A stretch of 64,000 bases of DNA from assembly GCA_963675785.1 (NCBI GenBank), contig OY776562.1:640001-704000 (forward strand), given 5' to 3'. Every line of letters begins with the position of its first letter. The first letter of the stretch is position 1. Made by a program: the position numbers and the translations under genes. A model generated the notes under the pieces. The model saw only the letters and a list, made by a program, of their open reading frames with translations. It was not told the origin of the DNA and ran no database searches. The stretch is from Anaerolineae bacterium. Lineage in GTDB: Bacteria; Chloroflexota; Anaerolineae; UBA1429. Positions 9,537-19,240 of the stretch are shown here, in pieces.

Positions 9537-11405
9537 CTAGAAATCGGCGTGCGAAACTTGCAGTTGCGTGATCTCCAGACTAACGGGGATATCCAAATCG
9601 GCGGCGATCATGTCTCGGGCAGTCTGCGCGCTAGCTTCATCCAAGCTTTCTGATTTTACAATAACAGAGATGACGAGGCCATCGGCAGTTTCTTCCATTT
9701 TCCAGCTATCAATACTGCTGTCAGGGACGGTTTGGGAGATGGCGCTTTGCAAACTGGTTTGAACGTGATTTGCAAACACCTCTTTTTGAACTGCATTGAT
9801 ACCAATCGCAGCCAGAATGATAATAACTGTTGCCAAAAGCACCGTGGTGCCCAAAAGACCGCCGCGGAACGTCTTACCATGTTGCCCATCGCCTGAGCGA
9901 GGGTGAAAACCCATCCACAAAAAGATGACCACGGCTGCGGATACGATAGCTACGAGGTTAGTAAGGAACAGCAGCAGAGCCTGCACCCCCAGCGTTAACT
10001 CGCCAGAGCCTACAAGTAGGCCGACAGTAGCCAAAGGCGGCACCAAGGCCACAGCGATAGCCACACCCGAAAGGGCACCTGCGGCCTCTCGGCGAGAGGT
10101 GGCATACGCAGCGGCTGCGCCCGACGCCAGAGCAACGCCCAGGTCCAGCAGAGTGGGTGAGGTTCGCCCCAGCATCTGGTCGGTGATGTTAGACCCCGGC
10201 ACCAGCCAGCCCAGGAACAAACTAACTCCGAATACCAGCAGGACGCCCTGAACCAGCGTGCGTAACGAGAGCCTTAGCATACGCTGATCTCCCTGTACGA
10301 CACTGAGACTGGTGCCCAGCAATGAGGACATGAGCGGCGCAATAATCATGGCGCCGATGATGACCGCCGAGCTGTTGAGCAAAAGACCAAGGGAGGCAAT
10401 GACGGCGGATAGGATTATCATTGTGTTGAAATCGGCGTCTGTACGCGACTGGCGTCGAACGCGGCGATAGATCTCGATGCGTTCTTCGAGAGTAAGTTGT
10501 GGCATGAGCTTGAGTAAGCCCCAACGTGCTTGCCGAAGAGCCGCTCGAGAAGCGCTATCTCTGCGACGCACAATAAAGAGCGGTATCTGCGAGCGCTGGG
10601 CAAGCTCTTGGGGAAGGTTGCCAAAGAGCAGGCGGTCTACCAAACTCTCGCGGGTGGCACCAATAAGGATGAGTTCGTGTTCGGCTGCTTCTTGAAGAAT
10701 GCCGTCGATGACACCGCGCGATAACACCACATGAGGATGTAAACGTTCATTTTGGCCAAAGGGTTCTACCACAGAACGAATCAGATCCCACTGGGAAAGC
10801 GTAGCTGTGGGGCTTAGGTCCGGATTGGCGATACGCACGGCGCTCATCTCCGCCTGAGGAGCCATATCCAGTCCCAGGCTGATGGCCAGTGAGGCGTTGG
10901 GGCCAGCACCGGTTGGTACCAATATCTGCTTGAGGTTGGCCATTCTCTTGGAAAAAGATGCGGCATCTTCGGTCACGCGCAGCACAATTACGTCGCAAGA
11001 TGCATTTTGGATGAGCGGATCGAGCGTTGTGCCCAGTACGTATGAACCACGCGAAGGCTGGCCGCGCCATACCAGCGAGAGCAGATCGGGCTCTTGATCC
11101 CGTACGAAGGAGAGCAAAAGATCTGCGCTGTTTAGGCCAACCAGCACGACAGGTTCTTGCACAACATCATCAAATTCTGAGGGGATGGACAGCCAATCAG
11201 GCGGTGCCTCTCGTTCTCCCACATGCACAGGTATGATCGTGCCCTGGCGTGATCGGGCTAGTGGCACCAGGGCGGCTAACTGGATAGACAGGTGTTCGGC
11301 AGTCCCGACTGCGGCGATGATGCGGTAGGCAGTCAATTCATCCTGATGTTTCTCAGCCGATAGGCCGTCTGGAATTGGGAGTCTCGAAGAAAATAGAGAG
11401 GTCAT
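9537..11405 (-). CDS. Universal-stress-like domains fused to a DUF389/TIGR00341 membrane domain
   Basis: ILVPTGAGPNA and IGATRES..FGN.P (USP); SSAVIIGAMIIAPLM and GVAIAVALVPPL (DUF389). Confidence 0.85.
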   Translation of the reverse strand: MTSLFSSRLPIPDGLSAEKHQDELTAYRIIAAVGTAEHLSIQLAALVPLARSRQGTIIPVHVGEREAPPDWLSIPSEFDDVVQEPVVLVGLNSADLLLSFVRDQEPDLLSLVWRGQPSRGSYVLGTTLDPLIQNASCDVIVLRVTEDAASFSKRMANLKQILVPTGAGPNASLAISLGLDMAPQAEMSAVRIANPDLSPTATLSQWDLIRSVVEPFGQNERLHPHVVLSRGVIDGILQEAAEHELILIGATRESLVDRLLFGNLPQELAQRSQIPLFIVRRRDSASRAALRQARWGLLKLMPQLTLEERIEIYRRVRRQSRTDADFNTMIILSAVIASLGLLLNSSAVIIGAMIIAPLMSSLLGTSLSVVQGDQRMLRLSLRTLVQGVLLVFGVSLFLGWLVPGSNITDQMLGRTSPTLLDLGVALASGAAAAYATSRREAAGALSGVAIAVALVPPLATVGLLVGSGELTLGVQALLLFLTNLVAIVSAAVVIFLWMGFHPRSGDGQHGKTFRGGLLGTTVLLATVIIILAAIGINAVQKEVFANHVQTSLQSAISQTVPDSSIDSWKMEETADGLVISVIVKSESLDEASAQTARDMIAADLDIPVSLEITQLQVSHADF

Positions 11406-11501: not shown

Positions 11502-12791
11502 TTACAGAATAGACTCACAGGGAGGTTCTTCTGATTGATTTTCAGTTGCATAGGCTCCGCGGGGTGTTTTGAACTGAAACCAGAATAGGATGCCACCAAC
11601 GGTAGAAGCAATGGCCCCCGTCGCGAAAACGGCTCCATAGCTGATCGATGTTGCCAGATATCCGCCGCCAAACGAGACGATCGCATTGCCCACATTAGAA
11701 GCTGCTGTAGTAATACCCGAAAGGAACTGCCGCCATTCCGCCCCCAGTATCTCCTGAATGAACACAATGTAGGCCGGCCGAGCGATTTGCCCTGCGGCGT
11801 TGACAATGAGAAACCCCAAGCCTGCTCCCAGCTCTGAATGTGTAAAAGCCATAACCACCAACCCTACACCTACACCGATAGCCCCCCAACTGACGGTGGG
11901 CACCAATCCCTTCTTTTCGCAGATGCGCGGCGTCATCAGTGCGGCAGGTGCAGCCAAAAGTTGGCCTATGGCGGTGATAACGCCGATGGTGGACGTAGGC
12001 GTATGTAGAACAGTATCTAGATAGACGTTCAGGAAGGTTCGTGCGGCGTTTTCGCCTGCCAAACGCAAGATGGAGACAACTGCCATGCCTGCGATGATAT
12101 TGCGCGCACCAATGGGGAGCACTTTGGGATTTATTGCATCCTTGGTAGATAGCTCACCAATGTCTTGGGTCTTGGCCATGAGGAATAGGGCAGGGATATA
12201 GAGAATTGCTCCTGCAACCAAAGCCCAGCGATAGGGACCTGCGTTATCAACTGTAGTGCTCATCAAGCTGGCAAACAGCGCCGGCAGCCAGCCGCCTATA
12301 AGACTTCCTATGAAACCGCCAAAGGGTGTAAGAGCTGCGTTTAGACTAAATGCCTGCTGTCGCTGTTTTGTTGGTGTTGTAACGGTAAGAAGAGGATGAA
12401 AATTAGGGAAATAAATCCCCGTTGCAATGCCAGAGAGCATGCGCATCAAGATGAACCACCAAGCAGATAATCCCCCCATGAGTTCCCCTAGGGGGAATAG
12501 CAGCGAGCTGATCAGCATCAGGTACATGCTTAGCATCACAACGCGTTTCATGCTGTATCGCCTGGATAGTTTATCTACGCTGAGGCTGGCCCCTATCACG
12601 GCAATCTGGGTCAATCCCGTTAGGATCCCTATGAAGCGCGCGTCATAGCCCAATCGAAGGAGGTACAGGTTCATCAGCACCGACCAGATGCCCCCCCCAA
12701 TGGTGATGACACGTAGGGCGCTTGTGCCCAAGAGTCTAAAAGAGGATTTATCCAGGCGATAATCAAGTGAATTTACAGGCCCTTGTTCCAT
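11502..12791 (-). CDS. MFS transporter
   Basis: About 12 TM segments; NLYLLRLGY..FIG; DKLSRRYSMK loop motif. Confidence 0.88.
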   Translation of the reverse strand: MEQGPVNSLDYRLDKSSFRLLGTSALRVITIGGGIWSVLMNLYLLRLGYDARFIGILTGLTQIAVIGASLSVDKLSRRYSMKRVVMLSMYLMLISSLLFPLGELMGGLSAWWFILMRMLSGIATGIYFPNFHPLLTVTTPTKQRQQAFSLNAALTPFGGFIGSLIGGWLPALFASLMSTTVDNAGPYRWALVAGAILYIPALFLMAKTQDIGELSTKDAINPKVLPIGARNIIAGMAVVSILRLAGENAARTFLNVYLDTVLHTPTSTIGVITAIGQLLAAPAALMTPRICEKKGLVPTVSWGAIGVGVGLVVMAFTHSELGAGLGFLIVNAAGQIARPAYIVFIQEILGAEWRQFLSGITTAASNVGNAIVSFGGGYLATSISYGAVFATGAIASTVGGILFWFQFKTPRGAYATENQSEEPPCESIL

Positions 12792-12960: not shown

Positions 12961-13118
12961 CTCTCGCTGGGTCAATGACGATCTGGTTCATGTCCCCGAC
13001 AACCCTGGGGACGGGCGAAGCCGCCCACTTCTGTTCTATAGTCAGGAAGGGGGACAGCCAGACGGTCATGATGTTTCCTGATGGTTTCAGTCGAAGCAAT
13101 CAAGTTGATCCAGGAGAG
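12961..13118 (+). promoter_or_regulatory. Structured 5' leader, candidate cis-regulatory RNA
   Basis: Nested stems; the outer stem pairs with the RBS region (CTCTC-G-CTGGGTCAA with TTGATCCAG-GAGAG). Confidence 0.5.
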
Positions 13119-13123
13119 AAATA

Positions 13124-14839
13124 GTGAAAAAGACATTTGCACTTGTCGTTAGCTTGCTGGTCATTGCAAGCATGGTGCTGTCGGGCTGTTCGCAGCCCAC
13201 TGCCACCCCCGCTCCCACATCTGCCCCAGATCCGACGGCTACTACGGCCGCTGCGACCGCCGAGCCCGAAGCCACGGCAGTGTCGGAAGTTACTACTGAG
13301 CCAGAAGCTACCACAGAGGTCGTATCTGAACTTTTGTGGACTCCTGAGCTCTTGCAGGCTTTCTCTGCCGCAATTGACCGCGAAGAGCTGGTCGATCGCG
13401 TTTTTGAAGGCCGTAACACCCCGGCCTATTCCATGGTCCCCGAAGACTATCCGTATGCGACCGAGCCCTTCTTGGATGCCTACGGCGAGCGTGACCTGGA
13501 TTTGGCCATTGAGCTGTTGACAGACGCCGGTTACACGGCCGATGCCCCGCTCGAGATTGAGCTTTGGTACCCGCCCGAGCACTATGGCACCACCACTGCT
13601 GATGTGATGCAGGTCCTCAAAGAGCAGCTCGAAGAGACCGGTCTGATCCTGATTGACCTCTCGAGCCAGAACTGGGCTTCTTACGTCGATGCCTTTGTGG
13701 CCGGCGAAATGCCCGTGTTTATGCTTGGTTGGTTCCCCGATTTCGCAGACCCCGACAACTGGCTGACTCCGTTTGCCTCTTGCCTCCAGTCTCCGGATAA
13801 CGGTGTGAACTTTTGCGACGAGGAAATGGACGCTTTGTTGAACGCTGCTGCTTCTTCTTCGGATGCAGCCGAGCGTGAAGAGCTATATCAGCAGATCGGC
13901 GACCTCTATGCTGAACTAGTTCCTACACTTCCGCTGTTCTGGGAATCCGAGTATGTGACCTACCGTGACGGCGTTGAAGGTGTTGATATCGGCTCAACCT
14001 TTGAGTTCAACTATAACGTCCTGAGCTTTGCCGAGGACGCCATCCCCGCTTCCGGCAGCACAGATACCATCATCATCGGCACCACCGATGAGGTGCACAG
14101 CCTGGATGCAAACGATGCCTACGCCACCCATGACTGGGAAATCATCAAGAACACGGGTCGCCCCTTGTTGACCTATGCTCCTGGCGAGACTGAGCTCATC
14201 CCAGGTTTGGCTGAGGCCCTGCCCGAAGTGAGTGATGATGGCCTCACCTATACCTTTAAACTACGCGAAGGTCTGACCTTTGCCGATGGCACGCCCATCA
14301 CCGCTGATTCCTTTGTATACTCTTGGGATCGTCTCAACTCCCTCGAAGGCGAAGTCTCCGGTTTGGTGCAGGTTTACGTCGAAAGCGTCGAGGCTGTGGA
14401 TGACCTGACGGTGGCTTATCATCTCACCGGCACCTACGGTTTCTTCTCAGCATTGGCTGCAACTGCGCCGTTCGTTCCTGTAAACCCCAACACCTTCCCG
14501 GCTGACGAACTCGTTGGTTATCCTGAGACCATTGAGGGCTGTGGTCCGTACGTTATGACCTCCTTGGTTGCTGGTGAGCAGATGGTGCTTGAGGCGAACC
14601 CCGAGTACTTTGGCGACGATGCTGCCTTGATCCCCAACGTCATCATTCGTTACTATGCTGATCCGACGACCATGGCCAACGCTGTGGAAAGCGGCGAGAT
14701 CGACGTTGCCTGGCGTACGCTTGGCCCCGTTGAGGCAGTCCGCCTCTCTGAGGTCGAGGGTTTGAACGTGATTACGGTTGAAGCACCTTCGCTCCGTTAC
14801 CTTGTGTTCAACCATACGTACACTGTGCCTGCTGAATAG
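13124..14839 (+). CDS. Peptide/nickel ABC substrate-binding lipoprotein (family 5), circularly permuted
   Basis: Lipobox LSGC; QAFSAAIDREE half precedes the TIIIG..SLD..SDDGLTYTFKLREG..F.DG half. Confidence 0.9.
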   Translation: MKKTFALVVSLLVIASMVLSGCSQPTATPAPTSAPDPTATTAAATAEPEATAVSEVTTEPEATTEVVSELLWTPELLQAFSAAIDREELVDRVFEGRNTPAYSMVPEDYPYATEPFLDAYGERDLDLAIELLTDAGYTADAPLEIELWYPPEHYGTTTADVMQVLKEQLEETGLILIDLSSQNWASYVDAFVAGEMPVFMLGWFPDFADPDNWLTPFASCLQSPDNGVNFCDEEMDALLNAAASSSDAAEREELYQQIGDLYAELVPTLPLFWESEYVTYRDGVEGVDIGSTFEFNYNVLSFAEDAIPASGSTDTIIIGTTDEVHSLDANDAYATHDWEIIKNTGRPLLTYAPGETELIPGLAEALPEVSDDGLTYTFKLREGLTFADGTPITADSFVYSWDRLNSLEGEVSGLVQVYVESVEAVDDLTVAYHLTGTYGFFSALAATAPFVPVNPNTFPADELVGYPETIEGCGPYVMTSLVAGEQMVLEANPEYFGDDAALIPNVIIRYYADPTTMANAVESGEIDVAWRTLGPVEAVRLSEVEGLNVITVEAPSLRYLVFNHTYTVPAE

Positions 14840-14925: not shown

Positions 14926-15948
14926 ATGTCGGCTTCTCTACGCAAGTTTCTGGTTGTGCGCATCCTTTTAACGATTCCTATGGTGATCATTCTGATCACA
15001 ATGGTCTTTTTTATCATGCGCGTGTTGCCAGGAGACCCTATACGTTCACAGCTTGGTCCCAAGGTATCAGAAGAGCAAGCAGAGGCGATGCGTGAACGCT
15101 TGGGCCTCAATAGGCCTTTATATGAGCAGTACTTTGATTTTCTTTGGGACACGATCCGGCTTGATTTTGGGACAGCGCTGACTTCAGGAGAGCGTCCCAT
15201 TGCGGATGAACTCGCTGAGCGGCTGCCCGCCACCATTGAACTGACTATTCCGGCCATGCTAATTACGGGTATTGCAGGCATAGGCCTTGGAGCATACGCA
15301 GCCAAGCACCGTAAACAGCCACAGGATTACATCATCCGTGCGGGAAGCATCGTTGTATATGCTATCCCCGTATTCTTTATGGGCTTGCTTTTTCAGATTT
15401 TGTTCGCGGTAAGAATCCCCATCCTGCCTCTTTCTGGGCGAATGGATACCATGATCCTCACTTCGTTCGAGTCAGTAACCGGCTTTTATGTCATCGATTC
15501 CATTATCACCGGAAACTGGCCCGCACTTTGGTCCGCCATCACCCATTTGATTATGCCCTCTGTAACGCTCAGTCTTGCTTTGACGGGGGTGTTTATTCGC
15601 CTAACGCGAGTAAACATGCTCGAAATGCTTCAGCAAGATTTCGTTACGGCTGGTCGTGCGCGTGGTATCCCCGAAAGACGCCTGGTGTACAAACACGCTC
15701 TGCGTAACACACTCATCCCCATTCTGACCATGTTTGGCATGCAGTTTGCTATTCTGCTTGCGGGTGCCACCCTTACAGAGACTACTTTTTCCTGGCCGGG
15801 CATTGGTCGTTATTTGGTTGAGAGAATCGAATTGCGTGACTATACCGCGGTTCAGGCTACGATCGCCGTCTTTGCTATGTTTGTTGCACTCATCAGTTTG
15901 TTAATGGATGTGGTCAACGCGTTCGTGGATCCCAGAATTCGCTACTAA
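14926..15948 (+). CDS. dppB: Peptide ABC transporter permease (DppB/OppB family)
   Basis: LPGDP, RLPATIEL, TAGRARG..Y.HALRN, ETTFSWPGIG, DPRIRY. Confidence 0.93.
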   Translation: MSASLRKFLVVRILLTIPMVIILITMVFFIMRVLPGDPIRSQLGPKVSEEQAEAMRERLGLNRPLYEQYFDFLWDTIRLDFGTALTSGERPIADELAERLPATIELTIPAMLITGIAGIGLGAYAAKHRKQPQDYIIRAGSIVVYAIPVFFMGLLFQILFAVRIPILPLSGRMDTMILTSFESVTGFYVIDSIITGNWPALWSAITHLIMPSVTLSLALTGVFIRLTRVNMLEMLQQDFVTAGRARGIPERRLVYKHALRNTLIPILTMFGMQFAILLAGATLTETTFSWPGIGRYLVERIELRDYTAVQATIAVFAMFVALISLLMDVVNAFVDPRIRY

Positions 15949-15968: not shown

Positions 15969-17222
15969 ATGAACCAGAAAAATAAAGATGCTGCATCTGT
16001 TCCCGAGTGGCAGCAAGATCTCGATAAAGTTGGTTTTGTACGCAAGCTGTTTATGGCTCGCAAGTGGTATGGTGGCGATTGGTGGTTTGTCGCCATTAGC
16101 GCCGTGTTGCTGTTCGGCGTTATTTTGCTAGGTGTCTTCCCCCAATGGTTCGCTCCATATGACCCCCGTGAAGAGGTTGGTGCTTCGCTCATGGCCCCCG
16201 GGCAGGAATCAGAGACATATGTTCTGGTGGTGCCGGAGGATTCCGAAGCCGAGTCTTTACGGGATGTAGGGCTCCGCGAGAATGCTCTGGGTTACACCAT
16301 GGGTACTCCAGCTAGCCAGTCGTTGCGCGATGCGCTGGATACCGCTACGGACGAAGACCAGGCCGCTGGTTTGGATGTTCGTTATCAGCCGCGCAAGACG
16401 CGTTATGAGACGCTCGAAGAGGGACTGGCTGCCTTGGAGGTGGGCGAGTTGGATGGCTATATCGTTTCCAACATCGTCTTTGAAGAGGTTGCAGATAACT
16501 ATTCGGGGTTACGCATTGTTGGCTCTATTAGCGATGTAGAAACGCCCCATTTTGTCTTGGGCACCAATCAGCTAGGCCAAGATGTTCTCAGTCGCACGAT
16601 CTGGGGTACCCGTATCGCATTGATCGTGGGACTTTGTTCGGCACTGGCCTCCATCGTTATTGGCGTGCCATTGGGGCTTGTCAGTGGCTTTGTCGGTGGT
16701 TGGGTGGATCGGGTACTGACTTTGGTGATGGATAGCCTTTATTCTTTCCCGGGGCTCATTCTGGCCATCGCTATCGCGGCTGTCCTTGGTTCAGGTATTG
16801 GCAACATCATTGTGGCTATCTCTGTGGTCTATGTGCCCACTTATTTCAGGGTTGTTCGCGGGCAAACGTTGTCTGTAAAAGAGGAACTCTATGTCGAGGC
16901 TGCTAAAAGTCTTGGCGCCACCTCTCGCGAGGTGCTCTGGAAGTATGTGTTCCCTAACGTTATCCCCTCCGTCGTCATCATCTTTAGCGTCAACGTGGCG
17001 GATGCGATACTTACAGAGGCAGGCCTGAGCTTCCTGGGATTCGGGTTACCCCCTGATGTTCCCGATTGGGGCATCGATCTGGCTCGTGGACAGGACTATA
17101 TTCGCCGGGCTTGGTGGCTTATTACAATACCTGGCGCCATGGTTAGCCTGGTGACACTCTCGTTCAGCATGCTCGGAGAAAGCCTCTCAGAGATTCTGAA
17201 CCCAAGATTGGCGGAGATTTAG
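15969..17222 (+). CDS. dppC: Peptide ABC transporter permease (DppC/OppC family) with a ~115 aa extracytoplasmic insertion
   Basis: APYDP..., LGTNQLGQDVLSR, YVEAAKSLGA (EAA loop), EAGLSFLG.G.PP..PDWG. Confidence 0.92.
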   Translation: MNQKNKDAASVPEWQQDLDKVGFVRKLFMARKWYGGDWWFVAISAVLLFGVILLGVFPQWFAPYDPREEVGASLMAPGQESETYVLVVPEDSEAESLRDVGLRENALGYTMGTPASQSLRDALDTATDEDQAAGLDVRYQPRKTRYETLEEGLAALEVGELDGYIVSNIVFEEVADNYSGLRIVGSISDVETPHFVLGTNQLGQDVLSRTIWGTRIALIVGLCSALASIVIGVPLGLVSGFVGGWVDRVLTLVMDSLYSFPGLILAIAIAAVLGSGIGNIIVAISVVYVPTYFRVVRGQTLSVKEELYVEAAKSLGATSREVLWKYVFPNVIPSVVIIFSVNVADAILTEAGLSFLGFGLPPDVPDWGIDLARGQDYIRRAWWLITIPGAMVSLVTLSFSMLGESLSEILNPRLAEI

Positions 17223-17225
17223 GCA

Positions 17226-18227
17226 ATGGCATCAGTCGTTACAGATACGTTGCCCCTTGTGCAGTTGCGCGATCTTTCCGTAACCTATCACACCCGTTTA
17301 GGCTCGGTGAGCGCCGTGGATGGTGTCTCTTTTGATATCCATCGCGGCGAGATTCTTGGCCTTGTGGGTGAAAGCGGTTGCGGCAAGAGCACTATGGGCA
17401 AGGCAATAATGCGCATGATCATGCCACCGGGAGAAATTTCGAGCGGCGAGATCGTCTTTGATGGTCAAGATATTATGCTCTACAACGACGACCAGATGCG
17501 TGATTTTCGTGGTCGACGTATGAGCATGATCTTTCAAGATCCCATGACTTCACTCAACCCCGTACAGCGCATCGATGAGCACCTTGTTGAGGCTTTACAG
17601 GTACATGAACCCAAAACGCCGCGCGAAGCGGCTTTGGAACGTGCTCGTGTGCTCGCAGAGCGTCTTGGTATTCGCCGTGACCGCTTGCAGAGTTATCCAC
17701 ATCAATTGTCGGGTGGCATGCGACAGCGTGTGATGGTTTCTTTGGGGTTGCTGCTGAACGCTTCTTTGGTAGTGGCTGATGAAGCGACGACTTCTCTCGA
17801 TGTGATCGTCGAGGCCAAGCTGATCGATGAATTAGTCCGCCTACGAGATGAGTTTGGTATCTCCATCCTCATGATTACCCATAATATCGCGTTGGTGGCA
17901 GAGGCGGCGGATCGTGTTGCTGTGATGTATGCCGGACGCGTGGTTGAGGTGGGCGGCGTGTACGAGGTGTTTGATACACCGCTCCATCCTTATACGAGCG
18001 GCCTGCTCTCTTCGGTCCCCAGCATTGCGCTGGATGACACCGAGGAGCTTTACAAAATGCCTGGTGAACCTCCCAATCTTACACATCCTCCTATGGGGTG
18101 CCGATTCCATCCGCGCTGCCCCAAGGCGTTACCGATCTGTTCTCAAAAGGCCCCAACACTGTTGGATCAGGGTGGTGGACATCTGGTGAACTGCTGGCTG
18201 TATCAATCGATCGAGCAGGAGGGCTAG
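17226..18227 (+). CDS. dppD: Peptide ABC transporter ATP-binding protein
   Basis: [31 protein letters not shown]-terminal GCRFHPRCP. Confidence 0.93.
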
Positions 18228-18229
18228 CA

Positions 18230-19240
18230 ATGACAGTGGATGTTCAAACGGCCACCGTTGACAATCTCGTCGAGGTTGATAACCTTCGGGTCTGGTTCCC
18301 AGTTCAGCATGGGATTTTTGAGACGCTCGTATCCGGGCACAAAGACTATGTACATGCTGTGGACGATGTCAGTTTTGATATTCGGCGCGGCGAGGTGTTC
18401 GGCCTGGCGGGCGAGAGTGGCAGTGGCAAAAGCACCACGGGTCGCGCCATCATTCGTCTTCTTGATCCAACGGCGGGCAAAATTAGCTTTGACGGGATTG
18501 ACATGCAGACGCTCTCTGCTGAAGAGCTGCGGCATCTGCGGCGCCGTATGCAAGTGATTTTTCAGGACCCCATGGCCTCGCTAAACCCACGCATGTCTCT
18601 TGGTGCATCAATAGCCCACCCGCTCCAAATACATTTTCCCGAGCAAAAGGCCAGGCACCATGAGATGGCCAGCGAAATGATGGAACACGTCGGATTATCG
18701 CCTTCTCGTTTTTACTATGACAAGTACCCCCACCAGATATCGGGTGGGCAGCGTCAAAGGGTAGTCATCGCCCGTGCGCTTATCACACACCCCGATCTGG
18801 TTATTGCTGATGAACCCATCGCTATGGCTGATGTAAGCGTGCGCGCCCTACTGCTCGACTTGATGATAAAGCTCAAGCAAGAGCTCAACCTCACGTATCT
18901 ATTCATTACCCATGACCTGGCAACGGCCAAATATATCTGTGACCGGTTGGGTGTCATGTATTTGGGCAAGATGTGTGAGATGGGGAACCTAAAAGATGTG
19001 TACGGTGAACCCCTACACCCGTATACGCGGGCATTGTTGGCTGCTGTGCCGGTTCCTGATCCCCATCGACGCCGCACGGAGGCCATGCCAGAGGGTGAGA
19101 TTCCCAACGCAATTCATCCACCAAAGGGTTGCAGATATCATCCACGCTGCCCGCTGGCACAGCCTATCTGTTCGCAGCAGGATCCAGAGTTGCGTGAGCT
19201 GCGCCCCGGCCATTTTGTGGCTTGCCATTTGGCGCGCTAG
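18230..19240 (+). CDS. dppF: Peptide ABC transporter ATP-binding protein
   Basis: GESGSGKS, YPHQISGGQRQR, GCRYHPRCP..VACH; start MTVDV after AGGAGG. Confidence 0.93.
   Translation: MTVDVQTATVDNLVEVDNLRVWFPVQHGIFETLVSGHKDYVHAVDDVSFDIRRGEVFGLAGESGSGKSTTGRAIIRLLDPTAGKISFDGIDMQTLSAEELRHLRRRMQVIFQDPMASLNPRMSLGASIAHPLQIHFPEQKARHHEMASEMMEHVGLSPSRFYYDKYPHQISGGQRQRVVIARALITHPDLVIADEPIAMADVSVRALLLDLMIKLKQELNLTYLFITHDLATAKYICDRLGVMYLGKMCEMGNLKDVYGEPLHPYTRALLAAVPVPDPHRRRTEAMPEGEIPNAIHPPKGCRYHPRCPLAQPICSQQDPELRELRPGHFVACHLAR

Follow-up and report, generated by a model that had tools for sequence, protein, structure and literature searches.

A probable lipid-anchored, circularly permuted family-5 substrate-binding protein conserved across Anaerolineae

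Results and Discussion

The binding-protein gene and its two swapped blocks

In a 64,000-nucleotide stretch of an Anaerolineae bacterium genome (contig OY776562.1, positions 640,001 to 704,000 of the forward strand; the window, with positions counted from its first letter), an open reading frame (ORF) at 13124..14839 on the plus strand encodes a predicted substrate-binding protein (SBP) of 571 amino acids, with a GTG start codon lying 5 nt after a Shine-Dalgarno-like AGGAGAG read from the sequence (13112..13118, plus strand). The translation, all of whose parts are on the same strand, opens with a signal peptide bearing a lipobox L-S-G-C (residues 1-22, 13124..13189), whose Cys22 is the predicted lipid attachment site. 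This is followed by a low-complexity tether of about 47 residues rich in P, T, A and E (residues 23-69, 13190..13330), in which a Pfam scan found no domain besides a sub-threshold low-complexity match. Next comes a block corresponding to the C-lobe of family-5 (OppA/DppA/NikA-type) SBPs (residues 70-302, 13331..14029; canonical positions about 285-518), which contains the GWFPDFADPD motif and the second long lobe-crossing strand. A 12-residue linker, AEDAIPASGSTD (residues 303-314, 14030..14065), sits between the two mapped blocks and connects the old C-terminus to the old N-terminus, and the block corresponding to the N-lobe (residues 315-565, 14066..14818; canonical positions about 27-283) then spans from TIIIGTTD to the first long lobe-crossing strand, ..LRYLVFN. 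Both blocks were delimited by PF00496, the canonical relative P0122, the structure 5isu and a strand of the AlphaFold2 (AF2) model, and the C-lobe block by 1b05 as well. An earlier note on this DNA, made from the letters alone, had placed a linker at 14030-14065, where AEDAIPASGSTD is indeed found; its LRYLVFN motif is likewise present, but not as the end of the protein, since the chain continues eight residues further (..LRYLVFNHTYTVPAE) in a short C-terminal tail (HTYTVPAE, residues 564-571; 14819..14839 with the stop codon) that makes the new C-terminus.

The order of the two blocks is reversed relative to every canonical reference used. Against the Pfam profile SBP_bac_5 (PF00496) the protein scored 254.4 bits (cut-off 32.4, E = 2.4e-75) in two swapped pieces, residues 74-222 matching profile positions 216-365 and residues 357-565 matching positions 1-209, and each half searched alone was still recognized, with 95.1 and 163 bits. 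No colinear match to the profile was found, while the control P0122 gave a single match over profile positions 2-366. Searches with phmmer against the Protein Data Bank (PDB) also returned two swapped stretches for the top chains: in 5isu, query residues 315-565 corresponded to chain positions 19-266 and residues 71-276 to 270-470, and in OppA (1b05) residues 314-553 corresponded to 13-267 and residues 79-259 to 292-470. P0122, the closest canonical relative, mapped in the same way (query 77-302 to 293-518; query 305-566 to 22-284) and itself aligned in one colinear stretch with every one of the 60 PDB chains listed; this control, together with the E-values, excludes a chance match. These alignments place the new termini in the loop that follows the strand L.Y..FN and precedes the helix ..R.A..A.DR.

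Predicted fold

An AF2 model of the SBP built on an alignment of 82 sequences had a mean predicted local distance difference test score (pLDDT) of 94.2 and a predicted template-modelling score (pTM) of 0.90, with the N-terminal block ordered (pLDDT 91) and two long strands, E201-214 and E480-495 in model numbering, where family-5 proteins cross between lobes. A Foldseek search of the PDB with this model gave 172 matches at E<=1e-3. All those listed were cluster-C SBPs (CtaP, YliB, MppA, OppA, NikA and DppA), aligned over 217-265 of 504 columns with template-modelling (TM) scores of 0.36-0.44; the model of the canonical sister P0122, used as a control (pLDDT 94.1, pTM 0.89), aligned with the same kinds of chains over 489-548 columns with TM scores of 0.72-0.88. 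Compared element by element, the secondary structures of the two models differ by a cyclic rotation: the first 14 elements of the SBP (HHHHEHEHEHHHHE) are the last 14 of P0122, and its last 17 elements are the first 16 of P0122 plus one short strand. Model confidence, top matches that each cover about half of the chain and the rotation of the elements thus point to a cluster-C fold.

Because both long crossing strands are intact in the model and the cut falls after the first one, both inter-lobe crossovers appear to be kept, with the two termini probably on the C-lobe beside the hinge. A cut that would remove one of the two hinge crossovers was considered and rejected, given that the model has both long strands, E201-214 and E480-495, and that the cut comes after the first crossing strand; this argument uses the customary domain limits of OppA. 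The Pfam, PDB and P0122 mappings and the rotated elements agree with the earlier proposal of a clean circular permutation with new termini between L.FN and R.A, for which two partial PF00496 matches in swapped order had been expected and a single colinear full-length match, not observed here, had been named as the contrary outcome.

Conservation of the permuted order in Anaerolineae

A word-indexed search of 5.8 billion proteins yielded 1068 matches, 120 of which were listed, with 65-79% identity over 87-100% of the query; all 120, which are protein clusters from several sources, have the permuted order relative to a profile of canonical order. A scan at the species level, with one genome per species, confirmed 423 relatives among 600 candidate stretches, and in the 80 best loci, which were those used, the main ORF was permuted without exception. 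All 80 carry Anaerolineae-type titles (Anaerolineaceae, Pelolinea, Leptolinea, Longilinea, Ornatilinea, Brevefilum, Thermoflexales and 'Chloroflexota'), and they include three cultured isolates: Pelolinea submarina MO-CFX1, whose genome is complete, Ornatilinea apprima P3M-1 and Longilinea arvoryzae KOME-1. The ORFs are intact across the 80 species at 62-79% identity, 71 of the 76 orthologous ORFs of near-full length have a lipobox-like motif, and the orthologues stop 5-8 residues after FN. In the 82-sequence alignment the lipobox Cys column, the linker P-A-S-G, the strand TIIIGTTD and the residues at the new N-terminus and new C-terminus (L490, R491, Y492, V494, F495 and N496 in mature numbering) are all nearly invariant. 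The same order had been suggested as something to look for in Chloroflexota relatives, and colinear orthologues in close relatives as what would speak against the permutation; the orthologues in all 80 best loci proved to be permuted, and the titles of these loci agree with an assignment to Chloroflexota.

Origin of the permuted clade

An exhaustive phmmer search of 1.84 billion representative proteins gave 44,544 matches at E<=1e-3. When the best 150 were mapped to the canonical profile, 18 were permuted, 104 were canonical single-unit proteins, two were multi-unit and 26 were partial. The top representative was P0122, a canonical protein with one colinear PF00496 match and 61% identity overall (59-64% in both blocks). 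Such close canonical relatives, like the permutations in other lineages described below, were absent from the earlier note.

For phylogenetic analysis, matched pieces were aligned to the canonical profile and merged by column, which gave a permutation-independent alignment of 138 rows and 493 columns. Left out of it were 105 of the 120 close relatives, the partial proteins, and P0123 and P0195. FastTree, run on the 138 rows, joined the 22 sampled members of the query family in one clade (support 1.00), whose sister was the canonical P0122 (0.99); next came the canonical P0127 (0.86), named as coming from an Anaerolineae metagenome-assembled genome (MAG); an IQ-TREE analysis of 48 rows under LG+G4 gave supports of 99, 99 and 88 for the same three groupings. 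Since the permuted clade is monophyletic and lies within canonical relatives, a single permutation event gave rise to it, and the new order later spread through Anaerolineae.

Circular permutations usually arise when the mature domain is duplicated in frame and the outer halves are then lost. The linker is short and its end, ..GSTD, resembles the mature N-terminus of P0127, ..ADSD, which fits this route.

The downstream importer operon

Four genes on the plus strand follow the SBP gene. The first (14926..15948) encodes a DppB/OppB-type permease of 340 amino acids with BPD_transp_1 and BPD_transp_1_N domains, for which the best NCBIfam matches, Opp2B and DppB, are below their cut-offs and which is kept downstream in the orthologous loci. 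The second (15969..17222) encodes a DppC/OppC-type permease of 417 amino acids, with BPD_transp_1 at residues 232-414, that aligns full-length in the orthologous loci at 56-72% identity. Two ATPase genes follow, of OppD/DppD type (17226..18227) and OppF/DppF type (18230..19240), each with ABC_tran and oligo_HPY domains and assigned by NCBIfam. The five genes occur in this order in 66 of the 80 loci, and at least 4.6 kb of downstream DNA was available in 65 of the 80, so that nearly every locus with room has the operon. No second family-5 gene was found in the 64-kb window, and the flanks of just two of the 80 loci contain one.

The protein thus joins an export signal (lipobox LSGC) to genetic linkage with Opp/Dpp-type permeases and ATPases, and this context, together with its conservation, suggests that it is the working binding protein of the downstream importer. 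The earlier note's picture of an intact ORF in a complete operon is borne out by the two permeases and the two ATPases with oligo_HPY tails, and its judgement that the protein is probably functional gains from the order kept in 80/80 loci and 120/120 listed clusters and from the confident AF2 fold. As for the ligand, GWFPDFADPD is nearly invariant in the 82-sequence alignment and aligns with GWCADY of OppA in the phmmer comparison with PDB chains. The Asp of this GW.PD/GWCADY motif, which we take to be the residue that binds the peptide amino terminus in OppA and DppA, would fit a peptide-like ligand.

Some observations concern the neighbouring genes themselves. As listed, the ORF of the second ATPase starts at GTG 18098 and has 130 nt in common with the first ATPase; ATG 18230, just past the upstream stop, gives a 336-residue ATPase that matches the DppF/OppF models from about residue 5 and is the likelier start, adopted above. 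The DppC-type permease is about 120-130 residues longer than the NCBIfam DppC/OppC models, which match only from about residue 190. The excess is an extra extracytoplasmic segment after the first transmembrane segment (about 16152-16568) that is conserved over its full length in the orthologous loci. No Pfam match above threshold and no usable Atlas match were found for this segment, the only similarity being a weak one to Phosphonate-bd (E = 0.064, 13 bits) that hints at a binding-protein-like lobe. Upstream of the operon, divergent genes on the minus strand encode a major facilitator superfamily (MFS) transporter (11502-12791) and a membrane protein with DUF389 and universal-stress-protein domains (9537-11405); the MFS gene was not found beside the operon in the 80 loci at the threshold used.

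Proposed architecture and alternative explanations

Altogether, we consider it likely, with a probability of roughly 0.85, that the product of the gene is a circularly permuted cluster-C (family 5; OppA/DppA/NikA-type) SBP with a lipid anchor, which serves the downstream Opp/Dpp-type ATP-binding cassette (ABC) importer. The permuted SBP is real and conserved, and probably functional. The mature chain would begin in the C-lobe and reach the final piece of the N-lobe by way of the second lobe-crossing strand, from where the conserved 12-residue linker would lead to the normally N-terminal strand TIIIGTTD; the chain would then finish the N-lobe and end just past the first lobe-crossing strand, L.Y..FN. 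With the cut in a surface loop after this strand, both crossovers would be kept and the fold would be that of an ordinary family-5 SBP, and both termini, hence the lipid tether, would have moved from the N-lobe to the C-lobe next to the hinge. As had been supposed in the earlier note, the tether would therefore be attached to a different lobe than usual, because the first block of the permuted chain is that of the C-lobe. An origin by in-frame duplication of the mature domain with loss of the outer halves, a functional consequence of the moved tether, and the import of peptides or a ligand like them may complete this scheme.

Several points weigh against parts of this interpretation. The distance between the termini, the retention of the crossovers and the position of the tether were judged only by homology and by secondary structure. 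Near the query clade no intermediate with a tandem duplicate was found, a search for longer proteins having returned only three distant kinase-SBP fusions, which is weak evidence, and no locus of the 80 has an adjacent second SBP copy. Neither of the canonical sisters, P0122 and P0127, has a lipobox, so that the anchoring mode of the ancestor is ambiguous. All 11 NCBIfam equivalog matches are far below their cut-offs (the best, OppA NF011684, reaches 121 bits against 947) and thus point to no particular ligand.

The default worry with a single window is an assembly chimera, that is, two halves of a normal SBP gene misjoined in the source assembly. Nothing specific to this locus favours it, although one permutant of another lineage, P0213, stands alone beside 119 canonical orthologues and comes from a contig of 3.5 kb. 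The recurrence of the same order in 80/80 species-level loci, including three cultured isolates, one of them represented by a complete chromosome, and in 120/120 listed protein clusters from several sources refutes this explanation, to which we assign a negligible probability, and base composition is even across the SBP junction. A true genomic product could still be a decaying remnant in which the C-half of one SBP gene was fused to the N-half of the next and which no longer folds or binds ligand, and the proposed duplication and truncation would indeed pass through such forms. Intact ORFs at 62-79% identity across 80 species, a nearly invariant core, linker and termini, the conserved lipobox and operon, and a model that folds as one compact unit (pLDDT 94.2) make decay very improbable.

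Somewhat less remote, but still improbable, is that a folded, permuted SBP has ceased to feed the importer and acts instead as a sensor, an adhesin or a scavenger. Family-5 domains of this subfamily are often fused to kinases or other domains, so non-transport uses exist, and the tether position differs from the canonical one. Against this, the SBP is always the first gene of a complete importer operon without another SBP gene, it is the only family-5 gene in the window, and a second one lies in the flanks of only 2/80 loci. If the protein had been repurposed, the importer would be left without a binding protein, as the operon holds no other SBP gene.

Comparison with known systems

The protein shares with cluster-C/family-5 SBPs (OppA, DppA, NikA, MppA, CtaP and YliB/GsiB) the Pfam family, the fold found by Foldseek, the operon with oligo_HPY ATPases and the GW.PD motif. 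It differs from them in that its two blocks are reversed, its termini lie in the loop after the first crossing strand and its old termini are bridged by 12 residues; its alignments with the listed PDB chains cover at most 265 of 504 columns. The canonical sisters P0122 and P0127 are its nearest branches in the tree, P0122 having 59-64% identity in both blocks and an equally confident AF2 model, but they have the canonical order, with one colinear PF00496 match, and plain signal peptides directly before TIIIGTTD, without lipobox or P/T-rich tether. Engineered circular permutants and permuted halves of periplasmic binding proteins reportedly indicate that the bilobed fold tolerates new termini. 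These are laboratory constructs of other SBP classes, whereas the query is natural and fixed in a bacterial class.

The closest natural precedent is TpMglB-2 (Tp0684) of Treponema pallidum, a permuted cluster-B glucose-binding lipoprotein that still binds its ligand (PMC4990184). The labels 'Type Ic / Cluster Bc' were proposed for it there, and its authors wondered about a link between topology and tethering (PMC4990184). Both are natural permuted ABC-transporter binding proteins from organisms with tethered binding proteins, but the fold of TpMglB-2 is of cluster B, type I and sugar-binding, and its first three N-lobe strands have moved to the C-terminus and a fourth crossover is needed (PMC4990184), whereas the query belongs to cluster C. 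The query cut appears, from the model, to leave two crossovers unchanged, and the breakpoint differs. By family and fold (cluster C) and by breakpoint, the query falls outside 'Cluster Bc'. It represents a new topological variant within the well-known family-5 SBPs, and full-text searches of the literature open without subscription gave no report of a natural circular permutant in cluster C/family 5. In the Mycobacterium tuberculosis DppABCD transporter, DppA rests on the translocator with its hinge region, where residues 259-264 and 281-282 make the contact (PMC10954201). If this geometry holds, the N-terminus relocated by the hinge would, hypothetically, start near the membrane-facing side; the M. 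tuberculosis DppA chain (PMC10954201) was not among the 60 PDB matches listed.

Few components of ABC importers have been studied as much as cluster-C SBPs, and all PDB matches listed have the same chain order. The permuted form and its 61%-identical canonical sister make a matched natural pair, which could show whether opening and closing, docking or transport depend on chain topology and on where the tether sits. For annotation, pipelines aware of domain order see two partial PF00496 matches, and several sources label the relatives 'hypothetical'. The finding would surprise those who work on SBPs and offers a testable approach to the effects of tether and topology, but it reveals no new kind of system.

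Other permuted and multi-unit relatives

Permutants outside the query clade were grouped by breakpoint in P0122 numbering. Type A breaks at 277-296, in the same loop as the query (P0179, P0182, P0203, P0213 and the fragment P0131); type A' breaks at about 261/266, before the crossing strand (P0217); type B at about 357/359, before LE.ELWYP (P0188, P0189, P0192, P0223 and P0269); and type C at about 86/93 (P0208). The sources are named as Bathyarchaeia/Bathyarchaeota for P0269 and P0217, Thermoplasmata for P0192, Heimdallarchaeota for P0208 and Propionibacteriaceae for P0213. In both of its pieces, every permutant for which a pairing was possible shares 46-69% identity with a canonical protein, and permutants of the same type from different lineages share only 29-33% identity with one another. 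By parsimony, block order changed 11 times on the IQ-TREE tree of 138 rows and 12 times on that of 48 rows. In the 48-row analysis, forcing all 13 type-A rows into one clade, a group chosen after a tree had been viewed, cost 1483 log-likelihood units (p-AU 2e-70). In the pair P0223 and P0172, the signal peptide and the C-terminal transmembrane anchor are unmoved and the body between them is permuted.

These permutants are not equally well supported. For P0269 there are 41 near-identical members, spread over many contigs, for P0217 there are 18 and for P0188 three; P0208 was found on four contigs, and P0203 and P0182 on two each. P0179, P0213, P0189, P0192 and P0223 are single sequences. Some of the permutants outside the query clade may accordingly be very recent, dead-end or erroneous, and about seven lineages can be counted as reasonably supported. 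P0213 was rejected as a second conserved bacterial permuted family, since a search made with it listed 120 proteins of which it was the one permuted, the other 119 being canonical orthologues at 57-75% identity. A tie between permutation and a change of anchor type was likewise unsupported, most canonical sisters being also lipoproteins or transmembrane-anchored proteins.

A broader reading, which we hold only tentatively and judge less probable than its opposite, is that permutation is recurrent in this family-5 subfamily and arose independently in several lineages with membrane-anchored binding proteins (Anaerolineae, Bathyarchaeia, Heimdallarchaeota, Thermoplasmata and possibly Actinomycetota). 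A small number of surface loops would be the favoured sites of the cuts: those on either side of the first crossing strand, the one before LE.ELWYP and the one before TYTF.LR. In Anaerolineae the permuted form would have become the fixed binding protein of an entire importer lineage because an anchor on the hinge side of the C-lobe alters docking on the permeases. Such a possible recurrence in lineages with anchored SBPs would echo the suggestion made for TpMglB-2 (PMC4990184) and would make it testable.

The two Bathyarchaeia permutants P0217 and P0269 are sisters (support 0.99-1.00) with 48-53% identity, and their breakpoints differ (about 261/266 and about 357/360), which implies either two events or a second permutation of an already permuted gene. 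In P0123 (1036 amino acids, on one 9.4-kb contig), a complete family-5 copy is nested inside another, and the insertion point is the loop before LE.ELWYP, that is, the type-B breakpoint. For protein engineering, the natural breakpoints mark family-5 loops that tolerate new termini or, as in P0123, a whole inserted domain, which is useful for biosensor design. P0195 (2704 amino acids; three members on two contigs of about 25 kb) consists of at least four consecutive family-5 SBP units, and arrays of this kind could be a source of permuted single units. Family-5 SBP domains also occur fused to SBP_bac_3 in P0135, to Exo_endo_phos in P0145 and to a Ser/Thr kinase in P0288-P0290 from Acidobacteriota, and the P0143 cluster also includes a split kinase and SBP form from a Chloroflexota MAG.

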